A stretch of 64,000 bases of DNA from Bacillota bacterium (lineage in GTDB: Bacteria; Bacillota; Clostridia; Peptostreptococcales; Anaerovoracaceae), in assembly GCA_016280485.1 (NCBI GenBank), contig JAEEGU010000051.1, positions 18,166-82,165 on the forward strand, given 5' to 3'. Shown piece after piece: positions 579 to 61,702 of this stretch. A model generated the notes under the pieces. The model saw nothing but the letters and a program-made list of their open reading frames with translations, had not been told where the DNA came from and made no database searches. A program made the translations under genes and the position numbers. Each line of letters opens with the position of its first letter. The stretch's first letter is position 1.

Positions 579-687
579 GTTCTTTGAACGAAAAAAATAG
601 AAAAATCTAAATTCTTCGCTTCCTCCTTTCAAAGGTATTATGGACGTTTATAGTTGACAACAATTTCATTTTTTTATTGTCAGATAT

Positions 688-715
688 ATTATATAGTTTT
701 TTTACATTTTGTCAA
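688..715 (-). promoter_or_regulatory. sigma-A-type promoter for the leftward gene
   Basis: Read on the minus strand: TTGACA (715-710), 16 nt spacer, TATAAT (693-688). It lies in an AT-rich divergent intergenic region. Confidence 0.45.
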
Positions 716-811: not shown

Positions 812-1002
812 TTGACAGTCAATATGTTTTAGTATATACTATGTGTGTACTTTATGGAGATTTTACTGCTGTTATCAGCAGCTTCACGAAGTATTTTTTT
901 GTAATTCGGAGACACTTCCCTACTTGTGGGCGAGGTGTCTCTTTTTATTATATAAACTTTTTTATGTGCTTGTGTTGGACGCACAAGCAGAAAGGAGAAA
1001 AC
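812..1002 (+). promoter_or_regulatory. Leader-repeat copy E9: promoter + structured leader + intrinsic terminator + SD hairpin
   Basis: TTGACA 812-817, 17 nt, TATACT 835-840, then GTAC at 847. P1 arms 847-859 and 882-893 enclose the hairpin CTGCTG/CAGCAG at 866-881. Terminator hairpin 908-941 plus T5. Hairpin 967-989 (loop TTGGACG) abuts the AGAAAGGAG SD; ATG at 1003. Confidence 0.8.
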
Positions 1003-6170: not shown

Positions 6171-6199
6171 TTGACAGACCATTAAAAAAAGTATATAAT
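6171..6199 (+). promoter_or_regulatory. consensus sigma-A promoter
   Basis: TTGACA 6171-6176, 17 nt, TATAAT 6194-6199. GTAC again begins 6 nt after the -10. Confidence 0.7.
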
Positions 6200-7552: not shown

Positions 7553-8066
7553 AGAAAAGACCTGGCCGAACCAGACTTCAGAGCCACCTCCCGAGCCGCC
7601 AGAGAATGCCGCTGTGCGCGATAGAGTAGAAGCAGCGAAAAGGGTGCTGTCTCACGATGAAAACGAAACATCCATGCCGGAGCCGCTTCTGAAGACCATT
7701 CTGATTGATCTGGCTTTGGCTTTTGGTATGCTTGCATTGGGCGTCGTTCTCACAATTCAGACCAAGAAAATATCGTATGCAGTGCCTCTGATTTTCTCCG
7801 CTTTTCTGGCATACCTGGCTCTTTCCATGCTGAGTGACTACCGTGCGGGAAAAATCCACGAACGGGTTTTGCTTTGCACTTCGGCAAACTCCAGTTTTCC
7901 GGGCTTTTCTGTCACAATGCAAACGACAGATAAAGAAGGGCCTGTTGACGTATTCAAGTTCTATTATCGCAATCGGAAATCTTGTCCGTTCAAAGAAGGG
8001 TACGTTTACGCTGTTTACACAAATGACAATCAGCCGCATCGAGTGATTGCCTGGAAAAACTTTTGA
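7545..8066 (+). CDS. membrane protein (2 TM)
   Basis: GGAGG SD. 8-nt overlap with the upstream gene. Two hydrophobic helices. Confidence 0.6.
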   Translation: MSEEKTWPNQTSEPPPEPPENAAVRDRVEAAKRVLSHDENETSMPEPLLKTILIDLALAFGMLALGVVLTIQTKKISYAVPLIFSAFLAYLALSMLSDYRAGKIHERVLLCTSANSSFPGFSVTMQTTDKEGPVDVFKFYYRNRKSCPFKEGYVYAVYTNDNQPHRVIAWKNF

Positions 8067-8082
8067 AAAAGGGAGAAAAGCA

Positions 8083-8283
8083 ATGGATACCGCGCAACAC
8101 ATACGAAACATTCGGGAGAGCGTCGGCCTCACCCAGGAAGAGTTTTCCAAAGCCTATGAGATTTCGCTGGAAACGCTGAAAGCGTGGGAGGACGGGCCCC
8201 AGCAGCCGCCGATCTATATTCTCAAAATGCTTGATTTGTACGTCAAGATATATCCTCCGGAAAAACTTGGAGCGCCTGATTGA
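8083..8283 (+). CDS. XRE-family HTH protein
   Basis: Internal ATG after the GGGAGAAAAG SD. IRNIRESVGLTQEEFSKAYEISLETLKAWE is a typical HTH_3 motif. Confidence 0.75.
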   Translation: MDTAQHIRNIRESVGLTQEEFSKAYEISLETLKAWEDGPQQPPIYILKMLDLYVKIYPPEKLGAPD

Positions 8284-10106: not shown

Positions 10107-10775
10107 CTACCTCCTTGTCCGGCCTGCCTTTCTCCGTGAATCAAACAAAGAAGGGTATTCTGCATCAAGGGCTTTCGCAATAATCTCATAATCCGGGTAA
10201 TGGTCTATGGATTTTGACGGAATCTCAATGAGCCGTTTTCGAAGCCTTTGATACGGAATGCCGGTGATTTCTGAAAGTTTGCGCATGGTGTAATGCTTGT
10301 AGCGCATGATTTTGATTACGTCTGGGAACTGAATGCTTCCAAGAGTTTGCTCCGTCGGCGTATTCTCGTGCCGTGGCGCTCTGGGAGCGTGGTATTCACT
10401 GAGGACTTCTACGGGAATTCCCGTAACATCGCTCAGCGCATTTGCGAGTTCGACGGGCATAGGCACTCCGTCAGAAACGAAAAGGGCTTTGTCGAGGGCC
10501 TCTGGCGTCCACCCGATCAGCTCCGCGAGCTCTTCAAGGGAGTACGTTGTTTTCTTGAACCATCTTCTAATCGCGGGATAAGGGCAGTTCCCGGGAAGGT
10601 GATTGTCGGTAAGACGGGAGAAAAACTTTGAGACGGCCTGACGTGTTACACCGTATCGCTCGCCAATCTCAGCCATGGACATTCCATCAATTCGCTTGGT
10701 GCAAATGTCGATTTTTACTTCTCGGGACATACATCCGGGGTTCATGAGCCGCCTATCGGTAATGTTCTTTTTCAT
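10107..10775 (-). CDS. multi-HTH DNA-binding protein (candidate regulator)
   Basis: Three HTH-like segments: MSMAEIGERYGVTRQAVSKF, YSLEELAELIGWTPEAL, YTMRKLSEITGIPYQRLRKRL. The start is uncertain because no adjacent SD is present. Confidence 0.65.
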   Translation of the reverse strand: MKKNITDRRLMNPGCMSREVKIDICTKRIDGMSMAEIGERYGVTRQAVSKFFSRLTDNHLPGNCPYPAIRRWFKKTTYSLEELAELIGWTPEALDKALFVSDGVPMPVELANALSDVTGIPVEVLSEYHAPRAPRHENTPTEQTLGSIQFPDVIKIMRYKHYTMRKLSEITGIPYQRLRKRLIEIPSKSIDHYPDYEIIAKALDAEYPSLFDSRRKAGRTRR

Positions 10776-14233: not shown

Positions 14234-14262
14234 AATTATATAATATAATTTGTTAGTTGTCA
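14234..14262 (-). promoter_or_regulatory. consensus sigma-A promoter of the topoisomerase operon
   Basis: Minus strand: TTGACA (14262-14257), 17 nt, TATAAT (14239-14234). Confidence 0.7.
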
Positions 14263-14292
14263 ACTGCTCGCGGATTTTACCCCATAAAAAAT

Positions 14293-14336: not shown

Positions 14337-16640
14337 TTATTGTTTTTTGGGCCTTGCTTTTGCTCCTTCGTGGTGAAGGCGCGAGGCAAGAAGCGTGATG
14401 CGGCTCATGCTTGGATCCGCGGTGCTGTCACGCATAATCGCAGTCCTAAGAGCCTCAGTTTCTCCTACGACAATGACGTGCTTTGTCGCTCTTGTTATTG
14501 CCGTATAGACGAGATTTCGGGCAAGCAGATTGCTGTGGACGTTTGACAAGACTAAGATGACGGTGTCCGTTTCGCAGCCCTGCATCTTGTGTACGCTCGA
14601 CGCATAGGCGAGATCGACGTTTGCCATCATCTTTGAGTCATACGCAACAAACGTGTCGTTGAATCTGATCGTAGCAACTTTTTCCATCTTGTCGCTATCC
14701 TGTGAGATCTTTTCCAACGAGATTCGTTCAACGAATCCGATCTCTCCGTTTTTGGGACCTTCTGTATTAACCAGTTGCATGACCTTATCCCCTGCGTGGA
14801 ATGTAACGCCATGGGAAGTAATTGTCATCTGGTCGGAGAGAATGGGATTGATCCTTGCCTGCAGCGCTTCATTAAAGCTGGTTGCTGTGAGCGACGTCGT
14901 TTTGCTTTTCTTGCGGTAAGGAACAAGCAGCGCAACGTCGTCCACGGTCAGGGTGGATTTGCTGATCAGCGTGTTGTAGAGGTTGCACGCAGTATCGAAG
15001 ATTTGGATGTCCCCTTTTCGCTCAGCGATCATGAATGCGGAGCACAGGTTTTTACTCCAAATCAAATCCGGCTGCCCGGTACGAATCTTAGCGGCGTTCA
15101 AAGGAATCAGGTTGATGTGATTGTCCGATTTCTGTCGAAAAATCTTATTCAGCCGGAAGACCTTGATTTCACCGCTGGATATGATATCGTGCAGGACGTT
15201 GCCGGCGCCGACGGACGGAAGCTGGTCCGGATCTCCGATCAGGATAACACGGGTTCCTTCTTCCACATGCCTCAGAAACATTGCCATTTGCAGGAGGTCG
15301 GCCATTGATATTTCATCGACAACCAACGCTTTTGCATCCAGCGTCCAATCCTCTTGGAGTCCTCCCCCGTTGCTTGGAAAGTTCAAAATCTCCTCTGTGT
15401 TTCTGCCGGTATAACCCAGAGCAGAAAGCACCGTGCTTGCAGGAGCTCCCGTCGCTTCTTCCATGCGCCGGGCGGCACGCCCTGTGGGAGACAGCAGCAG
15501 GATCTCACGATCCGGTACTTGTTCGACTTTTTTGAGTACATAGAGGAGACCTTTTATGACGGTTGTTTTTCCCGTGCCCGGAAATCCGGTGATCACGGAG
15601 ACACCGTTTCGGACGGCGCCGAGAATCGCGGCTTTTTGCTCGTCTCCAAACTTGATGTCTTCCCTGTTCTCATATTCCGTAATCGCATCTTCATATTCCT
15701 TCTCTTCCTTTTTCATAGCGGAAGCGTTATGTGCCAGGGCGAAGAGCTTCTTGGCGACAAACACCTCTTCCATGTAGGATTCGTTGGTGTAGAAGAGCCC
15801 GGAGTTGAGACGGATTCGTTTGCCGTCGCAGGCATTCATGAGAACCGCGTGGGCGAGTTCCTCGCTGACTGCGTTTGAACGACGGTTTAGAAGCTGCAAA
15901 GCGCCGACAATGCCTCGCCGACGGTCTCCCCGCAGCAGAATCGAGCTGGGAAGGCACGTCGAACCCTGAACGCTTGCGTTTCGCAGAGCCGTGTGAAGTG
16001 CGCTTTCGATACGTTTCGGACTGTCGAGCTCCGCAAGTTGCGTGGAAATGGCGAATTCGTCAACGCTGTCAAAGGTTCCTCCGAACAGGCACAGGCAGTA
16101 GGGATCTAATCGAACATAATTTGCGGTGATGTTGTGACGACGCATTTCCGCGAGATCTACTGACACACGGTTTCCAATTAAACGGATCAAATCCCGTTCA
16201 ATGGAGCTTTCGGCCAGCTTGAGCTTCAGATTTTCAAGCGCTTCCGTGCCGGCAATCCGTGCGGCAGCAGGCGGAATGTCATCCTCCTCCAGCCGCTTCC
16301 AGGCGTCTTTTCCAAGTAGGGTGTACAGTTTTGTGGCTCGCTTCTCCCCAAATCCTACGCCCAAGGAAGAAATGAATTTGATGAACTCCTTTTTGGTATC
16401 AGGCGGTTTCAGCTCAAATTCAGATACGGAAAACTGTTTTCCGTATTTCGCTTCCTCAAACGCTCCTTTTAGGATTACGGTGGCGTCGGTATCCGGAAGA
16501 TAGAACCCGACGGCATTAAAAACCATCGGATCCCCTTCCACAGTTTCATACCGCGCAACAGTAAATCCGTTTTCGGAATTGATGTAGGTTGTTCTTGTTC
16601 GCTTAGCAATAAGGACAACCTTTTCGTCCTTATTTTCCAT
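14337..16640 (-). CDS. RecD-like SF1B DNA helicase
   Basis: Walker A GFPGTGKTT, Walker B LVVDEISM. The C-terminal motifs YASSVHKMQG and VYTAITRA are typical of RecD2/TraA-like helicases. Confidence 0.9.
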   Translation of the reverse strand: MENKDEKVVLIAKRTRTTYINSENGFTVARYETVEGDPMVFNAVGFYLPDTDATVILKGAFEEAKYGKQFSVSEFELKPPDTKKEFIKFISSLGVGFGEKRATKLYTLLGKDAWKRLEEDDIPPAAARIAGTEALENLKLKLAESSIERDLIRLIGNRVSVDLAEMRRHNITANYVRLDPYCLCLFGGTFDSVDEFAISTQLAELDSPKRIESALHTALRNASVQGSTCLPSSILLRGDRRRGIVGALQLLNRRSNAVSEELAHAVLMNACDGKRIRLNSGLFYTNESYMEEVFVAKKLFALAHNASAMKKEEKEYEDAITEYENREDIKFGDEQKAAILGAVRNGVSVITGFPGTGKTTVIKGLLYVLKKVEQVPDREILLLSPTGRAARRMEEATGAPASTVLSALGYTGRNTEEILNFPSNGGGLQEDWTLDAKALVVDEISMADLLQMAMFLRHVEEGTRVILIGDPDQLPSVGAGNVLHDIISSGEIKVFRLNKIFRQKSDNHINLIPLNAAKIRTGQPDLIWSKNLCSAFMIAERKGDIQIFDTACNLYNTLISKSTLTVDDVALLVPYRKKSKTTSLTATSFNEALQARINPILSDQMTITSHGVTFHAGDKVMQLVNTEGPKNGEIGFVERISLEKISQDSDKMEKVATIRFNDTFVAYDSKMMANVDLAYASSVHKMQGCETDTVILVLSNVHSNLLARNLVYTAITRATKHVIVVGETEALRTAIMRDSTADPSMSRITLLASRLHHEGAKARPKKQ

Positions 16641-19458: not shown

Positions 19459-19704
19459 TGGTTCTCCTTTCTGTGGCTGTTCAAACCACTTACAATGTGC
19501 CAATTGCATTCACGCAAAGGGCGTTGTTTCTACCCCGGGCTATTGCCTGGAGCGATTCTTCGTATATATAAAAAGAGACCCTTCCCGACTTTTCGGAAAA
19601 GATCTCTCAGTTACTAAAAAATACTTCGTGAAGGTGCCTATCACGGCACTAAAAACCTTCATAAAGTACGTTGTTATTATATAATACTTTCGCCAATTTG
19701 TCAA
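19459..19704 (-). promoter_or_regulatory. Leader-repeat copy E1
   Basis: Minus strand: TTGACA 19704-19699, 17 nt, TATAAT 19681-19676, GTAC 19669-19666. Terminator hairpin 19607-19574 plus a U run. SD hairpin 19489-19473. This copy has the longest post-terminator spacer. Confidence 0.8.
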
Positions 19705-25097: not shown

Positions 25098-25501
25098 GTG
25101 TCATCACCAGCCCCCTGTCCAGCCTCTTCGAAGGAATAGCTGGCGTCCAGACGCGGGGCGTAGTCCATGGGATTGACTGTGGGCTTCTTCTTGGGCTTCC
25201 ACGGGCTTACAGCGATCGTGTCAGCCTTGACTTCGATTTGGGATCGTTCCCTGCCCGTGGAGCTGTCCGTCCAGTACCGCGTGACAAGAGCGCCGGTCAC
25301 AGTAATAAGCTGCCCCTTCTTGCAATCCGCGAGGACCTCCGCCCAGACGTCCCAGGCGACAATGTCGTAAAAGTCAGCCTGAGCATCGGTATCCCGGTGA
25401 TGCGCGAGCCGCACCGATGTTACCGCCTTTCCATTCTGCGTTCTGCGCAAAACAGGATCGGTGGCAATTCTTCCTGCGAGTACGATTTGATTTACCATCA
25501 T
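25094..25501 (-). CDS. ssb: single-stranded DNA-binding protein
   Basis: Start moved to the internal ATG after GGAAAGGAAC. OB-fold pattern MVNQIVLAGRIATDPVLRRTQNGKAV...DFYDIVAWDVWAE...KKGQLITVTGAL. First gene after E2. Confidence 0.9.
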   Translation of the reverse strand: MMVNQIVLAGRIATDPVLRRTQNGKAVTSVRLAHHRDTDAQADFYDIVAWDVWAEVLADCKKGQLITVTGALVTRYWTDSSTGRERSQIEVKADTIAVSPWKPKKKPTVNPMDYAPRLDASYSFEEAGQGAGDDT

Positions 25502-25710
25502 TTTAATGTTCCTTTCCGCCCATTCGTCCAAATGGGCCGTCCCTGTGGCAATTCTTCGGCCTATATGCAAAAAGAGACCTTCTCCGCTAATCCGCGGAAA
25601 AGATCTCTCAATTACAAAAAAGGTACTTCGTGAAGATACGCCACAAACAGCATATAAATATCCTTCATAAAGTACGTGTTTAGTATATACTAAAAATGTT
25701 ATTTTGTCAA
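25502..25710 (-). promoter_or_regulatory. Leader-repeat copy E2
   Basis: Minus strand: TTGACA 25710-25705, 17 nt, TATACT 25687-25682, GTAC 25675-25672. Terminator hairpin 25608-25573 (15 bp) plus U5. SD hairpin 25537-25518 with loop UGGACG. Confidence 0.8.
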
Positions 25711-26821: not shown

Positions 26822-26850
26822 ACTATATAATAAATCTGTTATTCTGTCAA
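26822..26850 (-). promoter_or_regulatory. sigma-A promoter of the kinase-like gene
   Basis: Minus strand: TTGACA 26850-26845, 17 nt, TATAGT 26827-26822. No repeat-family leader. Confidence 0.65.
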
Positions 26851-26990: not shown

Positions 26991-27458
26991 TTAATCTGAA
27001 TTATTTGTAGAATTTTGCGCCTTTTTACTTTTCCTTTCGACACGTTTTATTTCTTTGGCGCTGTCTTTTATAATATCCAGGATAACAAACTGTTTGTCTA
27101 ATGGAAGCTCGGTGATTATTTTTATAAGCGCTACGGTTTCGTCCGGAAGAGTTTTGATTTTAAGCATCAGTTCAACTGCAGTTTGAGACAACTGCGGGAA
27201 AGTAGCGTAGAGTTTTTCTTTTTCTGTCGAATTGGCTTCGACTCCAATCCGAAACATTTCTCCTGTTCCAAACTGCAGCCATTCATCTCGTACACCAAAG
27301 ACTTGAGAAATTAGTGTGATGATGTGACTGCTTGGAGTTGTTACACCGCTTTCGTATGCAGAAATTGTGCTTGCTTTGAGATTGATTCTGGAAGCAAATA
27401 GTGCCTGCGTTAATCCTAAGGCTTTTCTTAGAGTTTTGATTTGTTCGCCGGGACTCAT
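26991..27458 (-). CDS. XRE/cI-like HTH regulator
   Basis: Internal ATG after the GGAAGGGAG SD. IKTLRKALGLTQALFASRINLKASTISAYESG is an HTH_3 motif. Divergent from 27688..28203. Confidence 0.8.
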   Translation of the reverse strand: MSPGEQIKTLRKALGLTQALFASRINLKASTISAYESGVTTPSSHIITLISQVFGVRDEWLQFGTGEMFRIGVEANSTEKEKLYATFPQLSQTAVELMLKIKTLPDETVALIKIITELPLDKQFVILDIIKDSAKEIKRVERKSKKAQNSTNNSD

Positions 27459-27480: not shown

Positions 27481-27509
27481 ATTTTATCATCAAAACCGTT
27501 ATTTGTCAA
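27481..27509 (-). promoter_or_regulatory. promoter of the XRE gene
   Basis: Minus strand: TTGACA 27509-27504, 17 nt, TAAAAT 27486-27481. Confidence 0.55.
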
Positions 27510-27602: not shown

Positions 27603-27631
27603 TTGACTTATAGAAAACGCCATTATATAAT
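27603..27631 (+). promoter_or_regulatory. promoter of 27688..28203
   Basis: TTGACT 27603-27608, 17 nt, TATAAT 27626-27631. Confidence 0.65.
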
Positions 27632-27687: not shown

Positions 27688-28203
27688 GTGATACTTAACG
27701 AACTCAATCGCAGTACAGGCTATTACTCCTTCTACGAAAAACGCATTTCTGATCTTGAGACCTTGCAAGTAATGTTTGAGGAGAATGGGGCAAAGCCAAG
27801 CGATGAAATCATTGATTCCGTCGCTTGCCGTGTATGCGTTGTCCCGGTCGTGGTATTCCGCACTACTGAACGCGCTGCCGGCTGCAATTCTTGCCCAGCC
27901 ATGGTACACAAGGACTCGGATCTCGTCTGGAATGGAGTCGTACTGCTTATCCCCAGTAAAGCGGATATTGGTTCACCCGTGTCGCCTGATGTGATTGAAA
28001 AGGAGCTTGCGTCTTGCGATTTTCTCACAGAACAGCAAATTGCGGAAACTGCGGGGAAAGTCTTCAGCAGTTTTGAAAATATAGATCCGGTCTCCCCTGC
28101 TGCGTTTATCATCTGCGACGGAACTGAAATTGACGTCAGCATGAAATCAGCAGTGCTCGGCGCCAGTGAAACTGAGTTTGGGAAAGCTATTTGGGTAGAC
28201 TAA
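27688..28203 (+). CDS. hypothetical protein (opposite-strand cassette under the divergent XRE)
   Basis: GTG start 6 nt after AGGAGGGA. 171 aa. Confidence 0.6.
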   Translation: MILNELNRSTGYYSFYEKRISDLETLQVMFEENGAKPSDEIIDSVACRVCVVPVVVFRTTERAAGCNSCPAMVHKDSDLVWNGVVLLIPSKADIGSPVSPDVIEKELASCDFLTEQQIAETAGKVFSSFENIDPVSPAAFIICDGTEIDVSMKSAVLGASETEFGKAIWVD

Positions 28204-31132: not shown

Positions 31133-31329
31133 AGTTTTTCCTTTCTGCTCACTTGTCCCTGTGAGCCGTTCTTGTGTCCTATCTTCGTGCTATATGTAAA
31201 AAGAGACCTCTCCCGAAGTGGGAAAGATCTCCTGATTACAAAAAAATACTTCGTGAAGATGCCTTTTTGGCATTGATAAACCTTCATAAAGTACAGGATT
31301 AGTATATACTATTATTGAACAGGTGTCAA
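31133..31329 (-). promoter_or_regulatory. Leader-repeat copy E3
   Basis: Minus strand: TTGACA 31329-31324, 17 nt, TATACT 31306-31301, GTAC 31294-31291. Terminator hairpin 31232-31202 plus U5. SD hairpin 31166-31147 with loop AGGGACAA. Confidence 0.8.
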
Positions 31330-36968: not shown

Positions 36969-37159
36969 TTTGTTTTCCTTTCTGCCCGTATTTGGGGCGT
37001 CCTGTTGCGGTTCTTCCTGATATATATAAAAAGAGACCTTTCCCTTTCCGGAAAGATCTCTCAATTACAAAAAAAATACTTCATGCGGCCGCTGGAGTCA
37101 GCAGTAAAATCCTTCATAAAGTACAGGAATAGTATATACTGATTTCGCTTATTTGTCAA
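36969..37159 (-). promoter_or_regulatory. Leader-repeat copy E4
   Basis: Minus strand: TTGACA 37159-37154, 17 nt, TATACT 37136-37131, GTAC 37124-37121. Terminator hairpin 37061-37032 plus U5. Short SD hairpin 36998-36984, with GGAC just 5' of it. Confidence 0.8.
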
Positions 37160-40006: not shown

Positions 40007-40205
40007 CTGTTTTCCTTTCTGCCCACTTGTCCGTGTGGGCCGTCGTTGTGTCCTATCTTCGTGCTATATATAAAAAGAGACCTTCCCCACTCCAGTAGGA
40101 AAGATCTCTCGAATACAAAAAAATACTTCGTGAAGCTGCTGATAACAGCAGTAAATTCTTCATAAAGTACGGTATTAGTATATATTATTTGTGTAATAAA
40201 GTCAA
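40007..40205 (-). promoter_or_regulatory. Leader-repeat copy E5
   Basis: Minus strand: TTGACT 40205-40200, 17 nt, TATACT 40182-40177, GTAC 40170-40167. Terminator hairpin 40109-40076 plus U5. SD hairpin 40040-40021 with loop ACGGACAA. The P2 hairpin is identical to that of E9. Confidence 0.8.
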
Positions 40206-47857: not shown

Positions 47858-48055
47858 GTTTTTCCCTTTCTGCCTATTTGTCCGAATAGGCCGCCTCTGT
47901 GTCGGTTCTTCCTGCTATATATAAAAAGAGACCTCCCCCGAAATGGGAAAGATCTCTCAATTACAAAAAAAGTACTTCGTGAGAATGCCGTTTAGGGCAT
48001 AAATAATCTCCATAAAGTACATGAACAGTATATACTATTTCTGGATTTTTGTCAA
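47858..48055 (-). promoter_or_regulatory. Leader-repeat copy E6
   Basis: Minus strand: TTGACA 48055-48050, 17 nt, TATACT 48032-48027, GTAC 48020-48017. Terminator hairpin 47957-47927 plus U5. SD hairpin 47891-47872 with loop UCGGACAA. Confidence 0.8.
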
Positions 48056-48149: not shown

Positions 48150-48195
48150 TAGACAGGGGCCCTGCTCTATGTTATATTCTATTTGTAGAGCAGGG
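48150..48195 (+). promoter_or_regulatory. promoter with flanking 10-bp inverted repeat (operator)
   Basis: TAGACA 48150-48155, 18 nt, TATATT 48174-48179. CCCTGCTCTA 48160-48169 and TAGAGCAGGG 48186-48195 bracket the -10. Confidence 0.6.
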
Positions 48196-48233: not shown

Positions 48234-48590
48234 ATGCCAGTAGTTAAGTTAACGTTGAGCCAAGAGGCCTATGAAGAATTACAGCGATTAGCTGGTAGCC
48301 AAAGCATTCAGGATTACATAAGAAGTAAAATATTCGGTAGCACTATTTTTACTGTGGATGAAGCAGTAAGACGAATCCAAGCCGGGGACTTTGATCCCGA
48401 AAAATATCCCGATGGCTTTGAACTCCCCGATGTATACGGAGACGAGTGGACTATTGCACGAGGTCCCGCAGGATCCTTTGGCAAACAGTTCTATAACCAC
48501 ATCGTAGCTAATCCTGATTTAGGCATAAGTTTTAAGAATATGGGCAAGTACGGCAGACGAGCCGTTTACACGTTTGAAAGGAGAAAATAG
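48234..48590 (+). CDS. hypothetical protein with possible N-terminal ribbon-helix-helix
   Basis: AAGGAGG SD. The N-terminus MPVVKLTLSQEAYEELQRLAG is RHH-like. AT-rich opposite-strand cassette. Confidence 0.6.
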   Translation: MPVVKLTLSQEAYEELQRLAGSQSIQDYIRSKIFGSTIFTVDEAVRRIQAGDFDPEKYPDGFELPDVYGDEWTIARGPAGSFGKQFYNHIVANPDLGISFKNMGKYGRRAVYTFERRK

Positions 48591-48797
48591 ATGAATAACA
48601 AACAGATTCGTAGGGCTATGAAGAATTTCGTTAAACATTACGGACAACAGGACACTCGAAAAATGACTAACCTGTTCTCTGCTGCGTACAAAACGCCCAA
48701 ACAGAGAATTGCGGGGAATCTAAAAACCATGCATTACGATGAAAAAACAATACTGATAACTACACATATCCCTGCCTGCTATAGCACAATGAATTAA
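48591..48797 (+). CDS. small basic protein
   Basis: ATG abuts the upstream stop (TAGATG). 68 aa, Lys/Arg-rich. Confidence 0.5.
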   Translation: MNNKQIRRAMKNFVKHYGQQDTRKMTNLFSAAYKTPKQRIAGNLKTMHYDEKTILITTHIPACYSTMN

Positions 48798-49800: not shown

Positions 49801-50760
49801 TTAAGGCGCCTCCTCTCCGGAAGGGTTTGCTGCGGCATTATTCCAGAAGGGATACTGGTCATTCGGGAGACCAATCGCTTCCCACAGATCAACCAGAACT
49901 GGATGATTACCTTCGACGATCTCCATTCTGAAATCCGGATCGTCCATGACGTAATCCACTTCTCCTCCAAGATCGTAGAACCTGTTTTTGAGTTCGCCGA
50001 GCTTATTGAAGACGCTCTGCTTGATCGCAATCCCGCTGGAATAACACGAGACGTCGAATGCTTTGAACATCCGCCTGATCGTATCAATCGCTTCATCCGG
50101 GACGACAACAGCCGGCCAGGAAGCAGCCAATGATGCCTTCAGCGGGTTGTTCTGATACCGGCGGGACAGCTCTGCCCACAGTTCCTTTTCGGAGACACGG
50201 GAAAGATCCTGGTGCTTCTCCAGATGCGGAACGGCCTCGATTCGCCAGGATCGGGGATCGTAGTCGTCCGGATCCTCGTCCATCGGAACCTCACCGTCCC
50301 AATCTTCCGCCGTATCCTTGACGAAAGTGAGCAACTTCTGCGCCTCCTTTTCAGTAGCACAGGCCGCCAGGACGGTTGTTGCCGGAGCAGCCGAACAGTA
50401 ATGTTTTCCTTCCGTGTACTCGCTCTGGTCGATTTCTTCCAGAACGAGCCAGACTCGCTTCCCAAGCGAATCAGAAAGCGCAGCGAATTCCTCTTCGGAC
50501 ATTTCCTCAACTTTACCGACGGCGACGTTTTCGAACACACCATCGGATATCTGCCCGTCGAGCTCCGCTCTGCACAGTTCCTCGGTGTTCCTCGTAATTC
50601 GAATGATCGTGTACTCATTCGTTCCGGACTTATCGGAATTAACGAGTTCCACGATTCTCGTGATGCCATCCTTCGACCAATCATAAACGACAGACGGCTC
50701 GAAGGAAATCTTCTGTCTATGGCCGTCTCTGCCATAGACCTTCCATTGTCTTGTTTTCAT
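49801..50760 (-). CDS. hypothetical protein
   Basis: Internal ATG after AAGGAGGAG, overlapping the upstream stop as ATGA. 319 aa, acidic. Confidence 0.6.
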   Translation of the reverse strand: MKTRQWKVYGRDGHRQKISFEPSVVYDWSKDGITRIVELVNSDKSGTNEYTIIRITRNTEELCRAELDGQISDGVFENVAVGKVEEMSEEEFAALSDSLGKRVWLVLEEIDQSEYTEGKHYCSAAPATTVLAACATEKEAQKLLTFVKDTAEDWDGEVPMDEDPDDYDPRSWRIEAVPHLEKHQDLSRVSEKELWAELSRRYQNNPLKASLAASWPAVVVPDEAIDTIRRMFKAFDVSCYSSGIAIKQSVFNKLGELKNRFYDLGGEVDYVMDDPDFRMEIVEGNHPVLVDLWEAIGLPNDQYPFWNNAAANPSGEEAP

Positions 50761-53814: not shown

Positions 53815-54017
53815 CTTTTTCCTTTCTCCCACGCTGTCCAGGCGTGGGCTTCTGTCGTTGGCTTTTCTTCTTTCTATATGTAAAAAGAGACCTTCCCCAT
53901 GATTCTTGGGTGAAGATCTCTCAATTACGGAATTTTACTTCGTGAAGTCCCAATCTGGGCAGTAATAATCTTCATAAAGTACATTGATAGTATATACTAT
54001 TGTTTACGCAAAGTCAA
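53815..54017 (-). promoter_or_regulatory. Leader-repeat copy E7
   Basis: Minus strand: TTGACT 54017-54012, 17 nt, TATACT 53994-53989, GTAC 53982-53979. Terminator hairpin 53921-53886 plus U5. SD hairpin 53848-53828 with loop CUGGACAG. The U-linker is altered to AAAAUUCCGUAAUU. Confidence 0.8.
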
Positions 54018-55530: not shown

Positions 55531-56074
55531 AGTGGGATCCTTTCTCCCACTCCTCGCCCTGGGTAGGACTGGAGTGGATACCCAGTCCTACCCGGGCGTG
55601 GCTTTATCAATTTGATTTCCGAGTTTTTTCTCGGACTCGTCTCTCTTCTTTGAGGACATGAGCCAAAGGAGTCACGGGCTTATCTCCTTGTCATCGGAGC
55701 AGAGGGTCACGGCCCGCCTCTGATTTCATCACCGTTCTTCGAACAGGTATGCGAGGCGGGAGCCTCGCTTCGATATTCAGTTGAGAATACCCGGCCCATT
55801 GACGCAAGGCCTATATATTTACACCAGCATCCTGGCGATTCTCCCCGTGCGCAAGCGCACGTACTGTTCGTCTTCCTTGAAGACAAACAAAAACCGCCAC
55901 TGCCCCTATACCTTCGCGCAACGTCCCTCGTTGCATCTCTAAGGGGGTGACGGATACTTCTTAGATCGGCAGCCCAGTTTGGGGTGCGGATCTGTGCCTG
56001 AAGGATATAATATCCCATTCAGTAATCTTCGTTAAGTACGGCTATATTATATACTATCATTGATTGTGTGTCAA
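55531..56074 (-). promoter_or_regulatory. long (~510 nt) structured leader with consensus promoter; divergent relative of the leader repeat
   Basis: Minus strand: TTGACA 56074-56069, 17 nt, TATAAT 56051-56046, GTACTTAACGAAG from 56039. Terminator-like stem 55953-55894 plus U5 (55893-55889). More stems follow, e.g. GUAGGACUGG/CCAGUCCUAC. No credible ORF. Confidence 0.6.
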
Positions 56075-57077: not shown

Positions 57078-57455
57078 TCAAATCTGGTGCGTCCGTACCC
57101 ATTCCAACAACGCATCATAATCCATCTGGCCTGCAGCAACCGCAAGCCCTGTGTCTGCAACTTCGCGGTTTGTGCAATCCATGTGAATGCCATTGACCTC
57201 CAGAAATGTCAGCATCACATACATCCCAATCCTTTTGTTGCCGTCAACGAAAGCGTGATTGGAAATTAAAGTAAATCCGATTCTGGCTCCTTTCTCAACT
57301 TTGGTTGGGTAGAGCTCCTTCCCGTCAAATGTTGCAAATGCACCGTCCAGAGCAGATTCCAGGAGGCCTTCATCTCGAATTCCGACGCTGCCGCCGGTCT
57401 CTTGCGCAATCAATTGATGCAGCAGCTTCACCTTTTCGGAAGAGAATCGTATCAT
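57078..57455 (-). CDS. doc: Doc/Fic-family toxin
   Basis: Fic motif HAFVDGNKRIG. ATGA overlap with the upstream antitoxin gene. Confidence 0.88.
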   Translation of the reverse strand: MIRFSSEKVKLLHQLIAQETGGSVGIRDEGLLESALDGAFATFDGKELYPTKVEKGARIGFTLISNHAFVDGNKRIGMYVMLTFLEVNGIHMDCTNREVADTGLAVAAGQMDYDALLEWVRTHQI

Positions 57456-57694
57456 TTTGCCAGCTCCTCGAATGCGGGTTTGAATTTCTTCAGAATTCGT
57501 GCGGCAACGATGTCGATTTTCTCGTCGTCCGTCATGTCCAGCAAAGGAGATTGATCCACGTCAAGCAGGATATATTTGGGACGGTTATTTTTGAAAATCA
57601 CAGCTTGTCCGTTCCGATCTGCAATCCGTGTCACACGGGAAAAGTTTTGATTCGCTTCACTTACCGAGACAATGGAATTGGTATCAATGTTCAT
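57452..57694 (-). CDS. phd: Phd/YefM-type antitoxin
   Basis: 80 aa. The N-terminus SVSEANQNFSRV...AVIFKNNRPKYILL is typical of the family. GGAGG SD. Confidence 0.8.
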   Translation of the reverse strand: MNIDTNSIVSVSEANQNFSRVTRIADRNGQAVIFKNNRPKYILLDVDQSPLLDMTDDEKIDIVAARILKKFKPAFEELAK

Positions 57695-61501: not shown

Positions 61502-61702
61502 TTTTTTCCTTTCTGCTCACTTGTCCCTGTGAGCCGTCTTTGTGTCCTATCTTCGTGCTATATATAAAAAAGAGACCTTCCCTACTTCCGTAGAAAAGAT
61601 CTCCTGATTACAAAAAAATACTTCGTGAAGGTGCCGTTTTAGGCACTGATAATCCTTCATAAAGTACAATGATAGTATATATTATTTTTTGTGTAATGTC
61701 AA
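61502..61702 (-). promoter_or_regulatory. Leader-repeat copy E8
   Basis: Minus strand: TTGACA 61702-61697, 17 nt, TATACT 61679-61674, GTAC 61667-61664. Terminator hairpin 61604-61571 plus U6. SD hairpin 61534-61515 with loop AGGGACAA. The 3' ~75 nt are nearly identical to E3. Confidence 0.8.

Follow-up and report, generated by a model that had tools for sequence, protein, structure and literature searches.

Why should a near-consensus promoter be followed, ahead of its first gene, by a strong terminator? The question is raised by a 64,000-nucleotide stretch of DNA from a Bacillota bacterium (contig JAEEGU010000051.1, positions 18,166 to 82,165; hereafter the window), in which a compact leader on the minus strand, at 25,502 to 25,710, precedes the gene of a single-stranded DNA-binding protein (SSB). 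We argue, with somewhat less than even confidence, that this leader belongs to a set of termination checkpoints which lie close to their promoters and also insulate the several operons of an establishment regulon; an invariant 5' hairpin would license read-through, in cis or via a bound factor. A preliminary description of the sequence had placed a hairpin with a 15-bp stem followed by UUUUU at 25608-25573, and both its coordinates and its sequence proved exact: on the minus strand it reads AGAGATCTTTTCCGC-GGATTA-GCGGAGAAGGTCTCT, followed by TTTTT. The promoter consists of TTGACA (25710-25705), 17 nt, TATACT (25687-25682) and, after a further 6 nt, GTACTTTATGAAGG from 25675. Hairpin and U5 together span +68 to +108 relative to the predicted +1 and lie about 70 nt upstream of the SSB gene. 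The parts of this cassette, c25, are as follows.

25682..25710, minus strand: promoter, TTGACA-17-TATACT, with the -10 inside the palindrome TAGTATATACTA
25623..25675, minus strand: P1/P2, a 5'-terminal hairpin from the predicted +1 (GUACUUUAUGAAGG...CCUUCACGAAGUAC) with a variable P2 cap, then CUUUUUU
25568..25608, minus strand: intrinsic terminator T2, 15-bp stem, 6-nt loop and U5, -24.7 kcal/mol for the hairpin folded alone
25511..25541, minus strand: hairpin preceding the Shine-Dalgarno sequence (GCCCAUUUGGACGAAUGGGC), with GGAC in its loop; the Shine-Dalgarno sequence GGAAAGGA comes next and the SSB start codon is at 25501

The 111-nt leader of c25 as a whole folds at -47.2 kcal/mol (z = -8.3 against shuffles) and its antisense strand at only -27.3 kcal/mol, the sense strand thus folding 20 kcal/mol better. 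No T-run follows the hairpin on the plus strand, and the terminator signal is therefore strand-specific.

The cassette is repeated. Ten copies were found in the window, nine of them direct minus-strand copies detected by repeat search and the tenth a full plus-strand copy (812-1002), reached through one of the matches to the palindrome TAGTATATACTA (10 in the window versus 0.5 expected); the preliminary description had counted nine and overlooked the plus-strand one. The P1 motif has 20 matches in the window versus 3.2 expected, and a covariance model built from the window copies recovers exactly 9 full copies, at 88-112 bits. An extra match to TACTTAACGAA at 27692 was dismissed as being within chance expectation. 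The copies other than c25 are:

812..1002, plus strand: c01; -35 at 812, +1 at 847, P1 847-894, T2 908-942, GGAC hairpin ~967-990, first gene 1003
19459..19704, minus strand: c19; +1 at 19669, P1 19669-19621, T2 19607-19574, extra hairpins, first gene (392 aa) 19458
31133..31329, minus strand: c31; +1 at 31294, P1 31294-31246, T2 31232-31202, first gene 31132
36972..37159, minus strand: c37; +1 at 37124, P1 37124-37076, T2 37061-37032, ParB-like gene 36971
40007..40205, minus strand: c40; +1 at 40170, P1 40170-40123, T2 40109-40076, first gene 40006
47858..48055, minus strand: c48; +1 at 48020, P1 48020-47972, T2 47957-47927, PARP-domain gene 47857
53815..54017, minus strand: c54; +1 at 53982, P1 53982-53936 with no U-run after it, T2 53921-53886, first gene 53814
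55531..56074, minus strand: c56, a variant; +1 at 56039, 509-nt structured leader, DUF3232 gene 55530
61502..61702, minus strand: c61; +1 at 61667, P1 61667-61618, T2 61604-61571, first gene 61501

The copies share a common plan. The predicted +1 is the G of GTACTT, and P1 is a 14-bp AU-rich helix that begins with the first nucleotide (GUACUUU-A-UGAAGG / CCUUCA-C-GAAGUAC). A variable hairpin of 5-6 bp, P2, caps P1 above a 5' bulge; the two form one coaxial extended hairpin, 48-53 nt in length, whose internal bulge is on the 5' side. U6-8 follows 3' of P1 in eight of the nine canonical copies, and most leaders thus carry two tandem terminator-like signals. T2 runs from +62/68 to +93/103; in nine window copies its stem has 12-15 bp, its loop 4-7 nt and its folding energy lies between -18 and -25 kcal/mol, and its U-tract is U5-6 followed by AUAUA. 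In c01 it is a compensated variant stem, GGAGACAC.../...GGUGUCUC. The preliminary description had put the hairpin about 60 nt downstream of +1 and 60-70 nt before the start codon in every copy, which agrees with the onset at +62/68 and with the distance of 61-72 nt to the start codon in eight copies, but not with c19 (116 nt) or c56 (~360 nt). Nor is the terminator homologous in all nine of the copies that it counted: the homologous T2 occurs in eight minus-strand copies, whereas c56 carries a non-homologous hairpin with U5. T2 always sits between the consensus promoter and an operon without a promoter of its own, and no promoter-like site was found in the cassettes between T2 and the start codon. 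Further downstream, the loop of the last hairpin presents GGAC(A/G) about 17 nt 5' of the Shine-Dalgarno GGA, and GGAC occurs 19 times in 14 leaders versus 5.7 expected; the geometry of this hairpin resembles CsrA-type translational operators, and a csrA gene is absent from the window.

Homologous cassettes were also detected in at least six other metagenomic elements. Homologues of ParB with 73%, 55% and 39% identity led to three loci (L008, L009 and L023) with 3, 3 and 1 cassettes, respectively, and a DNA pattern fitting all known copies retrieved four further distinct metagenomic leaders. In a model-fitted alignment of 16 leaders, which calls for some caution, both partners have changed in a compensatory way in 11 of the 12 pairs of T2, with 96% of cells paired; 500/500 shuffles and all slid controls score lower. 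The sequence of T2 is wholly different between elements (for example GAGAGAUCUUUCC, GGAGACACUUCCC, CAGACAACUUUUC, AACACCUUCGGCCC and GAACGACU), and in all of them it is still a hairpin with a U-run, ending near +93 to +103. Covariation likewise extends to five of the six P2 pairs. In contrast, the 10 pairs of P1 contain no double change and only one-sided wobble changes, and L023, whose retrieval involved no sequence bias, has exactly the same P1 5' arm, GUACUUUAUGAAGG. These data indicate that T2 and P2 are constrained as structures, while the invariant P1 is constrained as sequence as well.

T2 thus combines a G+C-rich hairpin and a U-tract on the transcribed strand with a structure conserved by selection. 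Since compensatory changes affect nearly all of its pairs across elements, T2 is, on this comparative evidence, a real intrinsic terminator that is under selection on the strand being transcribed, in keeping with the earlier claim that a strong intrinsic terminator separates each consensus promoter from the first gene of an operon, these operons having no promoter of their own. The invariance of P1, as far as sequence comparison can tell, suggests a recognition element. Two observations together point to a function of the cassette leader at the RNA level: it folds much more stably in the sense than in the antisense orientation, and one copy lies on the opposite DNA strand.

Outside these elements, PLSDB plasmids and INPHARED phages, when searched for similarity to the leader or to the 12 kb around it, returned only chance Borrelia matches, which for leader blastn against PLSDB were short and confined to the promoter-proximal ~35 bases. 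Pattern scans of IMG/VR gave zero matches, and one scan of GTDB representative genomes with a strict pattern, which was too strict, gave only single chance-like matches. A tblastn search with ParB against plasmids yielded only one actinobacterial match (36% identity), and phage ParB homologues (~40% identity) have no cassette alongside.

How, then, would a polymerase pass T2? An alternative pairing within the leader is not the way: the preliminary description had found no antiterminator for the 5' arm of T2, and this was borne out. When the 3' arm is blocked, the 5' arm is essentially unpaired, except for a weak U-run:GAGAGA pairing of 0 to about -3 kcal/mol, and P1 is unchanged. No fold competes with T2, which excludes switching of the riboswitch, T-box, RAT, ANTAR or zipper type. 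On visual inspection, P1/P2 was also weighed as a K-turn, ANTAR or RAT element, and these readings were dropped, since a canonical 14-bp helix accounts for the sequence and the P2 loops vary. Rfam 15 (including EAR, JUMPstart, PyrR, T-box and riboswitches) at gathering thresholds has no match in the whole window, and when the limit is relaxed to E <= 10 the matches to the leader are all chance ones of terminator shape. The leaders also contain no boxA, ops motif or Reg576 operator.

The promoters of the window provide a further comparison. In the cassettes, the -10 lies within a palindrome of 10-12 bp, (T)AGTATATACT(A), at ten sites, and six other near-consensus promoters lead into their genes without a hairpin/terminator leader.

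25681-25692, and at 830, 19675, 31300, 37130, 40176, 48026, 53988, 56045 and 61673: -10 palindromes of the ten cassettes
688-715, minus strand: near-consensus promoter without hairpin/terminator leader
6171-6199, plus strand: near-consensus promoter without hairpin/terminator leader
14235-14263, minus strand: near-consensus promoter without hairpin/terminator leader, heading the topoisomerase III unit
26822-26850, minus strand: near-consensus promoter without hairpin/terminator leader
27481-27509, minus strand: near-consensus promoter without hairpin/terminator leader
27603-27631, plus strand: near-consensus promoter without hairpin/terminator leader

The leaderless promoters equal the cassette promoters in strength, three of them being perfect 12/12 matches, and have TATAAT, whereas the non-consensus TATACT is kept in 8 of 10 cassettes. 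The palindrome around it is likely to be a repressor operator, judging from its sequence. It also yields an antisense promoter-like site, TTCATA-16-TATACT, on the opposite strand in six copies. The promoter at 6171 has the common AGTATATAAT-N6-GTAC context, yet goes directly into a ribosome-binding site. Topoisomerase III and all helix-turn-helix (HTH) regulator genes (10107-10775, 8047-8283 and 26991-27458) lie in units with leaderless promoters, those of the HTH units being at 14263, 6171 and 27509. With all HTH genes in units that have no leader, the window would contain two classes of unit, ungated regulators and gated targets, an arrangement that fits a regulator-then-target hierarchy. 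Among the regulators, the XRE-family protein (26991-27458, minus strand) has its own promoter; a 171-aa gene (27688-28203, plus strand) is served by a second one, placed back to back with the first and divergent from it. The XRE protein is kept full-length in the distant relative L023 (4657-5088) with 38% identity, while the 171-aa neighbour is not conserved there.

Taken together, we infer that termination at T2 is efficient, that read-through is licensed and that P1 is the licensing element. In the proposed sequence of events, the near-consensus sigma-A promoter would fire, probably under the control of a repressor bound at the -10 palindrome, and the first 48-53 nt of the transcript would fold into the invariant 5'-terminal P1 capped by the variable P2. 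The U-run 3' of P1 would probably pause the polymerase; hairpins followed by a T-rich tract in the non-template strand are a classic NusG/NusA pause context in Bacillota. About 12 nt further, the polymerase would reach the long-stem terminator T2, and by default a stable RNA of ~100 nt would be released, so that the promoterless operon would be transcribed only by polymerases reading through T2. P1 would license this read-through either in cis, acting on the polymerase in the manner of put or canT, or as the site of an element or host factor, in the manner of nut/N or the LoaP hairpin, and T2 would at the same time stop polymerases that did not start at the cassette promoter. We favour licensing by P1 because P1 is invariant in sequence beside a freely evolving T2 and P2, because the spacing between P1 and T2 is fixed and has a U-run within it, because strong leaderless promoters head all HTH regulator units, and because Tn916 canT/T1 and ConAn offer precedents. 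A bolder version, in which the ~50-nt hairpin is a minimal portable cis licence that, alone or with an unrecognised protein family, makes only locally initiated polymerase resistant to T2, seems to us doubtful. If it held, ten anti-defence/establishment operons would be insulated and gated together by one small RNA module, and the hairpin would represent a new class of antitermination element, the first to form a multicopy regulon in a conjugative element.

Several findings weigh against the checkpoint. The called genes of the window contain no antiterminator domain (NusG/KOW, ConAn1 PF17362 or phage Q) by Pfam scans and Pfam tables, as the preliminary description had anticipated in finding no recognisable antiterminator protein there. 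At ~50 nt and as a single extended hairpin, P1/P2 is smaller and simpler than put, EAR, conAn2 and canT. With 12-15 bp, the stems of T2 are of a length found in experiments to resist ConAn antitermination, Bacillus terminator stems averaging 9 +/- 2 bp and those of >=14 bp being resistant (PMC10325885). Strong internal terminators are few within the operons, and processivity is therefore not obviously needed. Insulation of the operons from one another, which the earlier reading had derived from the terminator, agrees with the position of T2 between promoter and promoterless operon; five of the ten cassettes, however, already have a hairpin with at least a partial U-run upstream, and there the leader terminator is superfluous for insulation. 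All three HTH proteins formerly put forward as candidate regulators lie in leaderless-promoter units, but the 222-aa protein (10107-10775, minus strand), which is sigma-70 region 4-like, has no homologue but itself among 5.8 billion proteins, and as an orphan it is ruled out as partner for a motif that several elements have in common. Moreover, because the -10 is embedded in an operator-like palindrome, the master switch may be promoter repression rather than the terminator.

Other searches for a partner covered the window and the related elements. With a B. subtilis NusG sequence as query, phmmer found nothing in the window; CsrA and Hfq homologues are absent from the window as well, and no small basic protein conserved across elements was found. 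PDB sequence matches for the DUF3232 protein, a ribbon-helix-helix (RHH)-like open reading frame (ORF) and the 222-aa HTH protein were not informative. In L009, the first gene after one cassette (15604-16293) has a 229-aa product in which Pfam recognises an RNA polymerase alpha C-terminal domain (E = 1e-9); its window homologue (49801-50760) matches the N-terminal part only and lacks that domain.

Promoter repression is central to a rival account, less probable in our view but still a serious one, in which the cassette is a constitutive leaky attenuator, insulator or threshold filter with no dedicated antitermination. T2 and the P1/U-run would terminate most transcripts, and a strong repressor-controlled promoter would give moderate expression when on and almost none from leak or upstream transcription; trains of polymerases might pass T2 more often than single ones, and P1 would mainly guard the 5' end. 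Neither an antiterminator factor nor an alternative fold was found, and a U-tract of just 5 U followed by AUAUA makes some read-through plausible. The palindromic -10, with TATACT kept in place of TATAAT, suggests a repressor at the promoter as the real switch, the Reg system of plasmid p576 operates by a promoter repressor, the XRE regulator is kept in L023, and EGeRS1 of plasmid pLS20 stops upstream read-through in an orientation-specific manner. What this account leaves unexplained is the invariance of both P1 arms across elements whose terminators have diverged and whose proteins fall to 39% identity, as a 5' stabiliser needs structure only. A weaker promoter or ribosome-binding site would also be a cheaper route to low expression, and the T2 of the window copies is uniformly very strong rather than tuned to each operon. 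Alternatively, and rather improbably, the terminated RNAs of ~100 nt are themselves the product, a multicopy, highly expressed and very stable small RNA (sRNA) that titrates or guides a host or element factor while the operons live on residual read-through. The layout is typical of an sRNA, with a 5'-terminal hairpin without overhang, a single-stranded U-rich linker (UUUUUUUGUAAUUG) and a Rho-independent terminator, there are ten copies downstream of consensus promoters, and the invariance of P1 would suit a conserved trans target. Every copy, however, is fixed upstream of a promoterless operon with conserved spacing to the ribosome-binding site, free-standing copies occur neither in the window nor in related loci, and no complementary target was found. 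An sRNA product would be compatible with the checkpoint, the two not being mutually exclusive.

A function at the level of DNA or single-stranded DNA (ssDNA), be it an operator pair of inverted GTACTT..GAAG arms, a Frpo-type single-strand promoter or a post-entry single-strand origin, appears very improbable. It would suit a gene content like that of a conjugative leading region and the view that EGeRS1 of pLS20 works as structured ssDNA or RNA, and the 5' arm of P1 is also initially transcribed DNA, on which DNA constraints are possible. A single-strand promoter of the Frpo/ssi kind was rejected, since the folded template strand leaves -35 and -10 outside any long hairpin and one cassette lies on the opposite strand, although conjugation transfers one strand only. 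Also against a DNA-level element, G-U wobbles keep P1 paired, the sense strand is the more stably folded one, T2 and P2 both covary as hairpins, and the arms are variably spaced. We give even less credence to classical attenuation by alternative structures, whether through a riboswitch, a T-box, a RAT/ANTAR-type switch, a leader peptide or a pLS20-type zipper. Where Bacillota have multicopy leader-terminator regulons, such switches usually underlie them. The leaders nevertheless have no Rfam match beyond chance, no conserved element overlaps T2 and no fold competes with it, the P2 loops are not conserved, and nothing upstream is complementary to the terminator in the way that a zipper requires. 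A leader peptide from the AUG at +8 was rejected, as this AUG has no Shine-Dalgarno sequence, is in a frame that is not conserved and is missing in the L008 and L009 copies.

Returning to the checkpoint, comparable systems are known from phages. At lambda PR'-tR', a strong promoter by default gives a short terminated RNA, and for the downstream genes the polymerase must be modified, by Q, at a promoter-proximal site; nut-type sites of lambda are repeated, one per early operon. The window differs from both: there is no Q-family Pfam match and the ten copies differ in the -35/-10 spacer, the place expected for a Q-binding element; the leaders have no boxA, their P2 loops are not conserved, no N homologue is present and the host is of Gram-positive type. 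As to a -10-like pause element of the Q type, TACTTT at +2 to +7 fits TAnnnT in most copies, and copy a of L009 has TACTAC. The put RNA of HK022 consists of two separate stem-loops in ~70 nt, promoter-proximal and one per early operon, and acts in cis without a protein factor. P1/P2 is also a short promoter-proximal RNA hairpin present once per operon and could, by analogy, act in cis; unlike put, it forms a single extended hairpin, interrupted by an internal bulge on the 5' side. LoaP, a NusG paralogue of Bacillota that lets the polymerase pass intrinsic terminators, requires a leader hairpin upstream of these and serves single polyketide or polysaccharide operons, whereas the window encodes no NusG-like protein, although a host-encoded factor is possible. 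In the cATT zipper of pLS20, a central long stem is extended into an antiterminator by an upstream stretch that can pair with the terminator; the leaders here have no such stretch.

Among Gram-positive elements, canT of Tn916 is a single-copy RNA of ~450 nt that acts processively over several terminators, with T1 as insulator (PMC11658703). The likeness proposed for the window cassette is that a terminator blocks unlicensed transcription while an upstream cis RNA lets it pass; the candidate here is, however, only ~50 nt long and present in ten copies, each with its own terminator directly after it. ConAn is an RNA element at the start of a Gram-positive conjugation operon, proposed to filter spurious transcription, and needs the ConAn1 protein (Pfam PF17362, pXO2-34), with one large RNA per element (PMC8191782, PMC10325885). 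In contrast, PF17362 was not found in the window, and long stems like those of T2 resist ConAn. The cassette is thus likened to lambda PR'-tR'/Q, N-nut, put, canT and ConAn only by analogy, and the features by which membership could be tested differ in each case.

The nearest concept to the cassette is that of the EGeRS regulons of pLS20 and p576. In EGeRS1 (pLS20) and EGeRS2 (p576), one conserved regulatory sequence stands before several variable establishment operons; EGeRS2 combines strong sigma-A promoters with Reg operators (TTATCCC dual motifs), whereas EGeRS1 is a complex structure of 420-750 bp that has no constitutive promoter and blocks upstream transcription in an orientation-specific manner (PMC8708921, PMC6294495). 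The window cassette likewise repeats one regulatory sequence ahead of several establishment-type operons, but it has no sequence similarity to any PLSDB plasmid. With ~200 bp and a consensus promoter it differs from the promoterless, GC-rich, multi-hairpin EGeRS1 of 420-750 bp, which is defined by a similarity of >60%. It shares the presence of a promoter with EGeRS2, but the Reg dual motif TTATCCCnnTTATCCC lies near no cassette, EGeRS2 has no leader terminator, and for the RHH-type Reg repressor the window offers one weak RHH-like ORF (48234-48590), below the Pfam threshold. Compared with EGeRS, the cassette unites promoter, invariant 5' hairpin and terminator within ~200 bp.

Little is known of how establishment and anti-defence genes are timed and confined in Gram-positive conjugative elements, only the EGeRS of pLS20 and p576 having been dissected. 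The cassette represents a third, compact design, kept in several uncultured elements and absent from Rfam, in which a leader terminator would gate operons of a mobile element. Its parts are cleanly separable: the promoter with a palindromic -10, the invariant hairpin, the terminator and, at the ribosome-binding site, the GGAC hairpin. Should P1 prove to license read-through, synthetic biology would gain from it a very small, portable part for antitermination or insulation, and metagenomes could be searched with it as a marker for establishment regulons and hence for new anti-defence genes. Otherwise, the cassette would be a clear natural case of promoter-proximal terminators used as leak filters.

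The genes behind the cassettes agree with such a setting. They encode SSB, a 782-aa ParB-like protein, a PARP-domain protein, DUF5983 proteins, YodL/DUF3846 and LPD34 proteins, dCMP deaminase, a RecD-like helicase, a YqaJ protein, a MoxR/VWA pair and a Phd/Doc pair. The last of these, a Phd/YefM antitoxin with a Fic/Doc toxin (57078-57694, minus strand), lies inside the c61 operon; the plus-strand operon of c01 encodes proteins of 110 aa and 136 aa, a MoxR-like AAA_5 protein of 602 aa and a VWA/CobT-like protein of 850 aa. Most products of the cassette operons between 20000 and 62000 are very acidic (isoelectric point 4-5.5) and without Pfam or PHROG annotation, which fits putative establishment proteins of the DNA-mimic or anti-defence type. 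Sortases are encoded directly upstream of c61, a Gram-positive pilin gene lies past the right end of the window, and a related element encodes a type IV secretion system coupling protein; no relaxase or origin of transfer (oriT) was seen in the window. Judging by this gene content, the window, which is 100% identical to contigs of JGI metagenome 3300041006, appears to be the establishment or leading-region part of a large conjugative element of Gram-positive type in an uncultured host.

The variant cassette c56 keeps the cassette promoter and both P1 arms, around an insert of ~60 nt, and its terminator is a branched hairpin with U5GU3 at 55953-55894. Its GC-rich untranslated leader of 509 nt (55531-56039, minus strand) has a minimum free energy of -212 kcal/mol (z = -7.7), no Rfam match and no homologue in the related loci, and is followed by the DUF3232 gene (55530-55033) and a 116-aa gene; a regulatory role as a large structured RNA is possible for this leader. 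Behind the leaderless promoter at 715, the leader (640-690, minus strand) contains an inverted repeat, TGACAAT...ATTGTTGTCA, a possible operator or another type of hairpin. Finally, between two operons, 48234-48797 on the plus strand encodes a 118-aa protein with a weak RHH/DUF1413 signal and a basic 68-aa protein, a pair that has its own TG-extended promoter at 48150-48178 and may be a regulator or a toxin-antitoxin pair.

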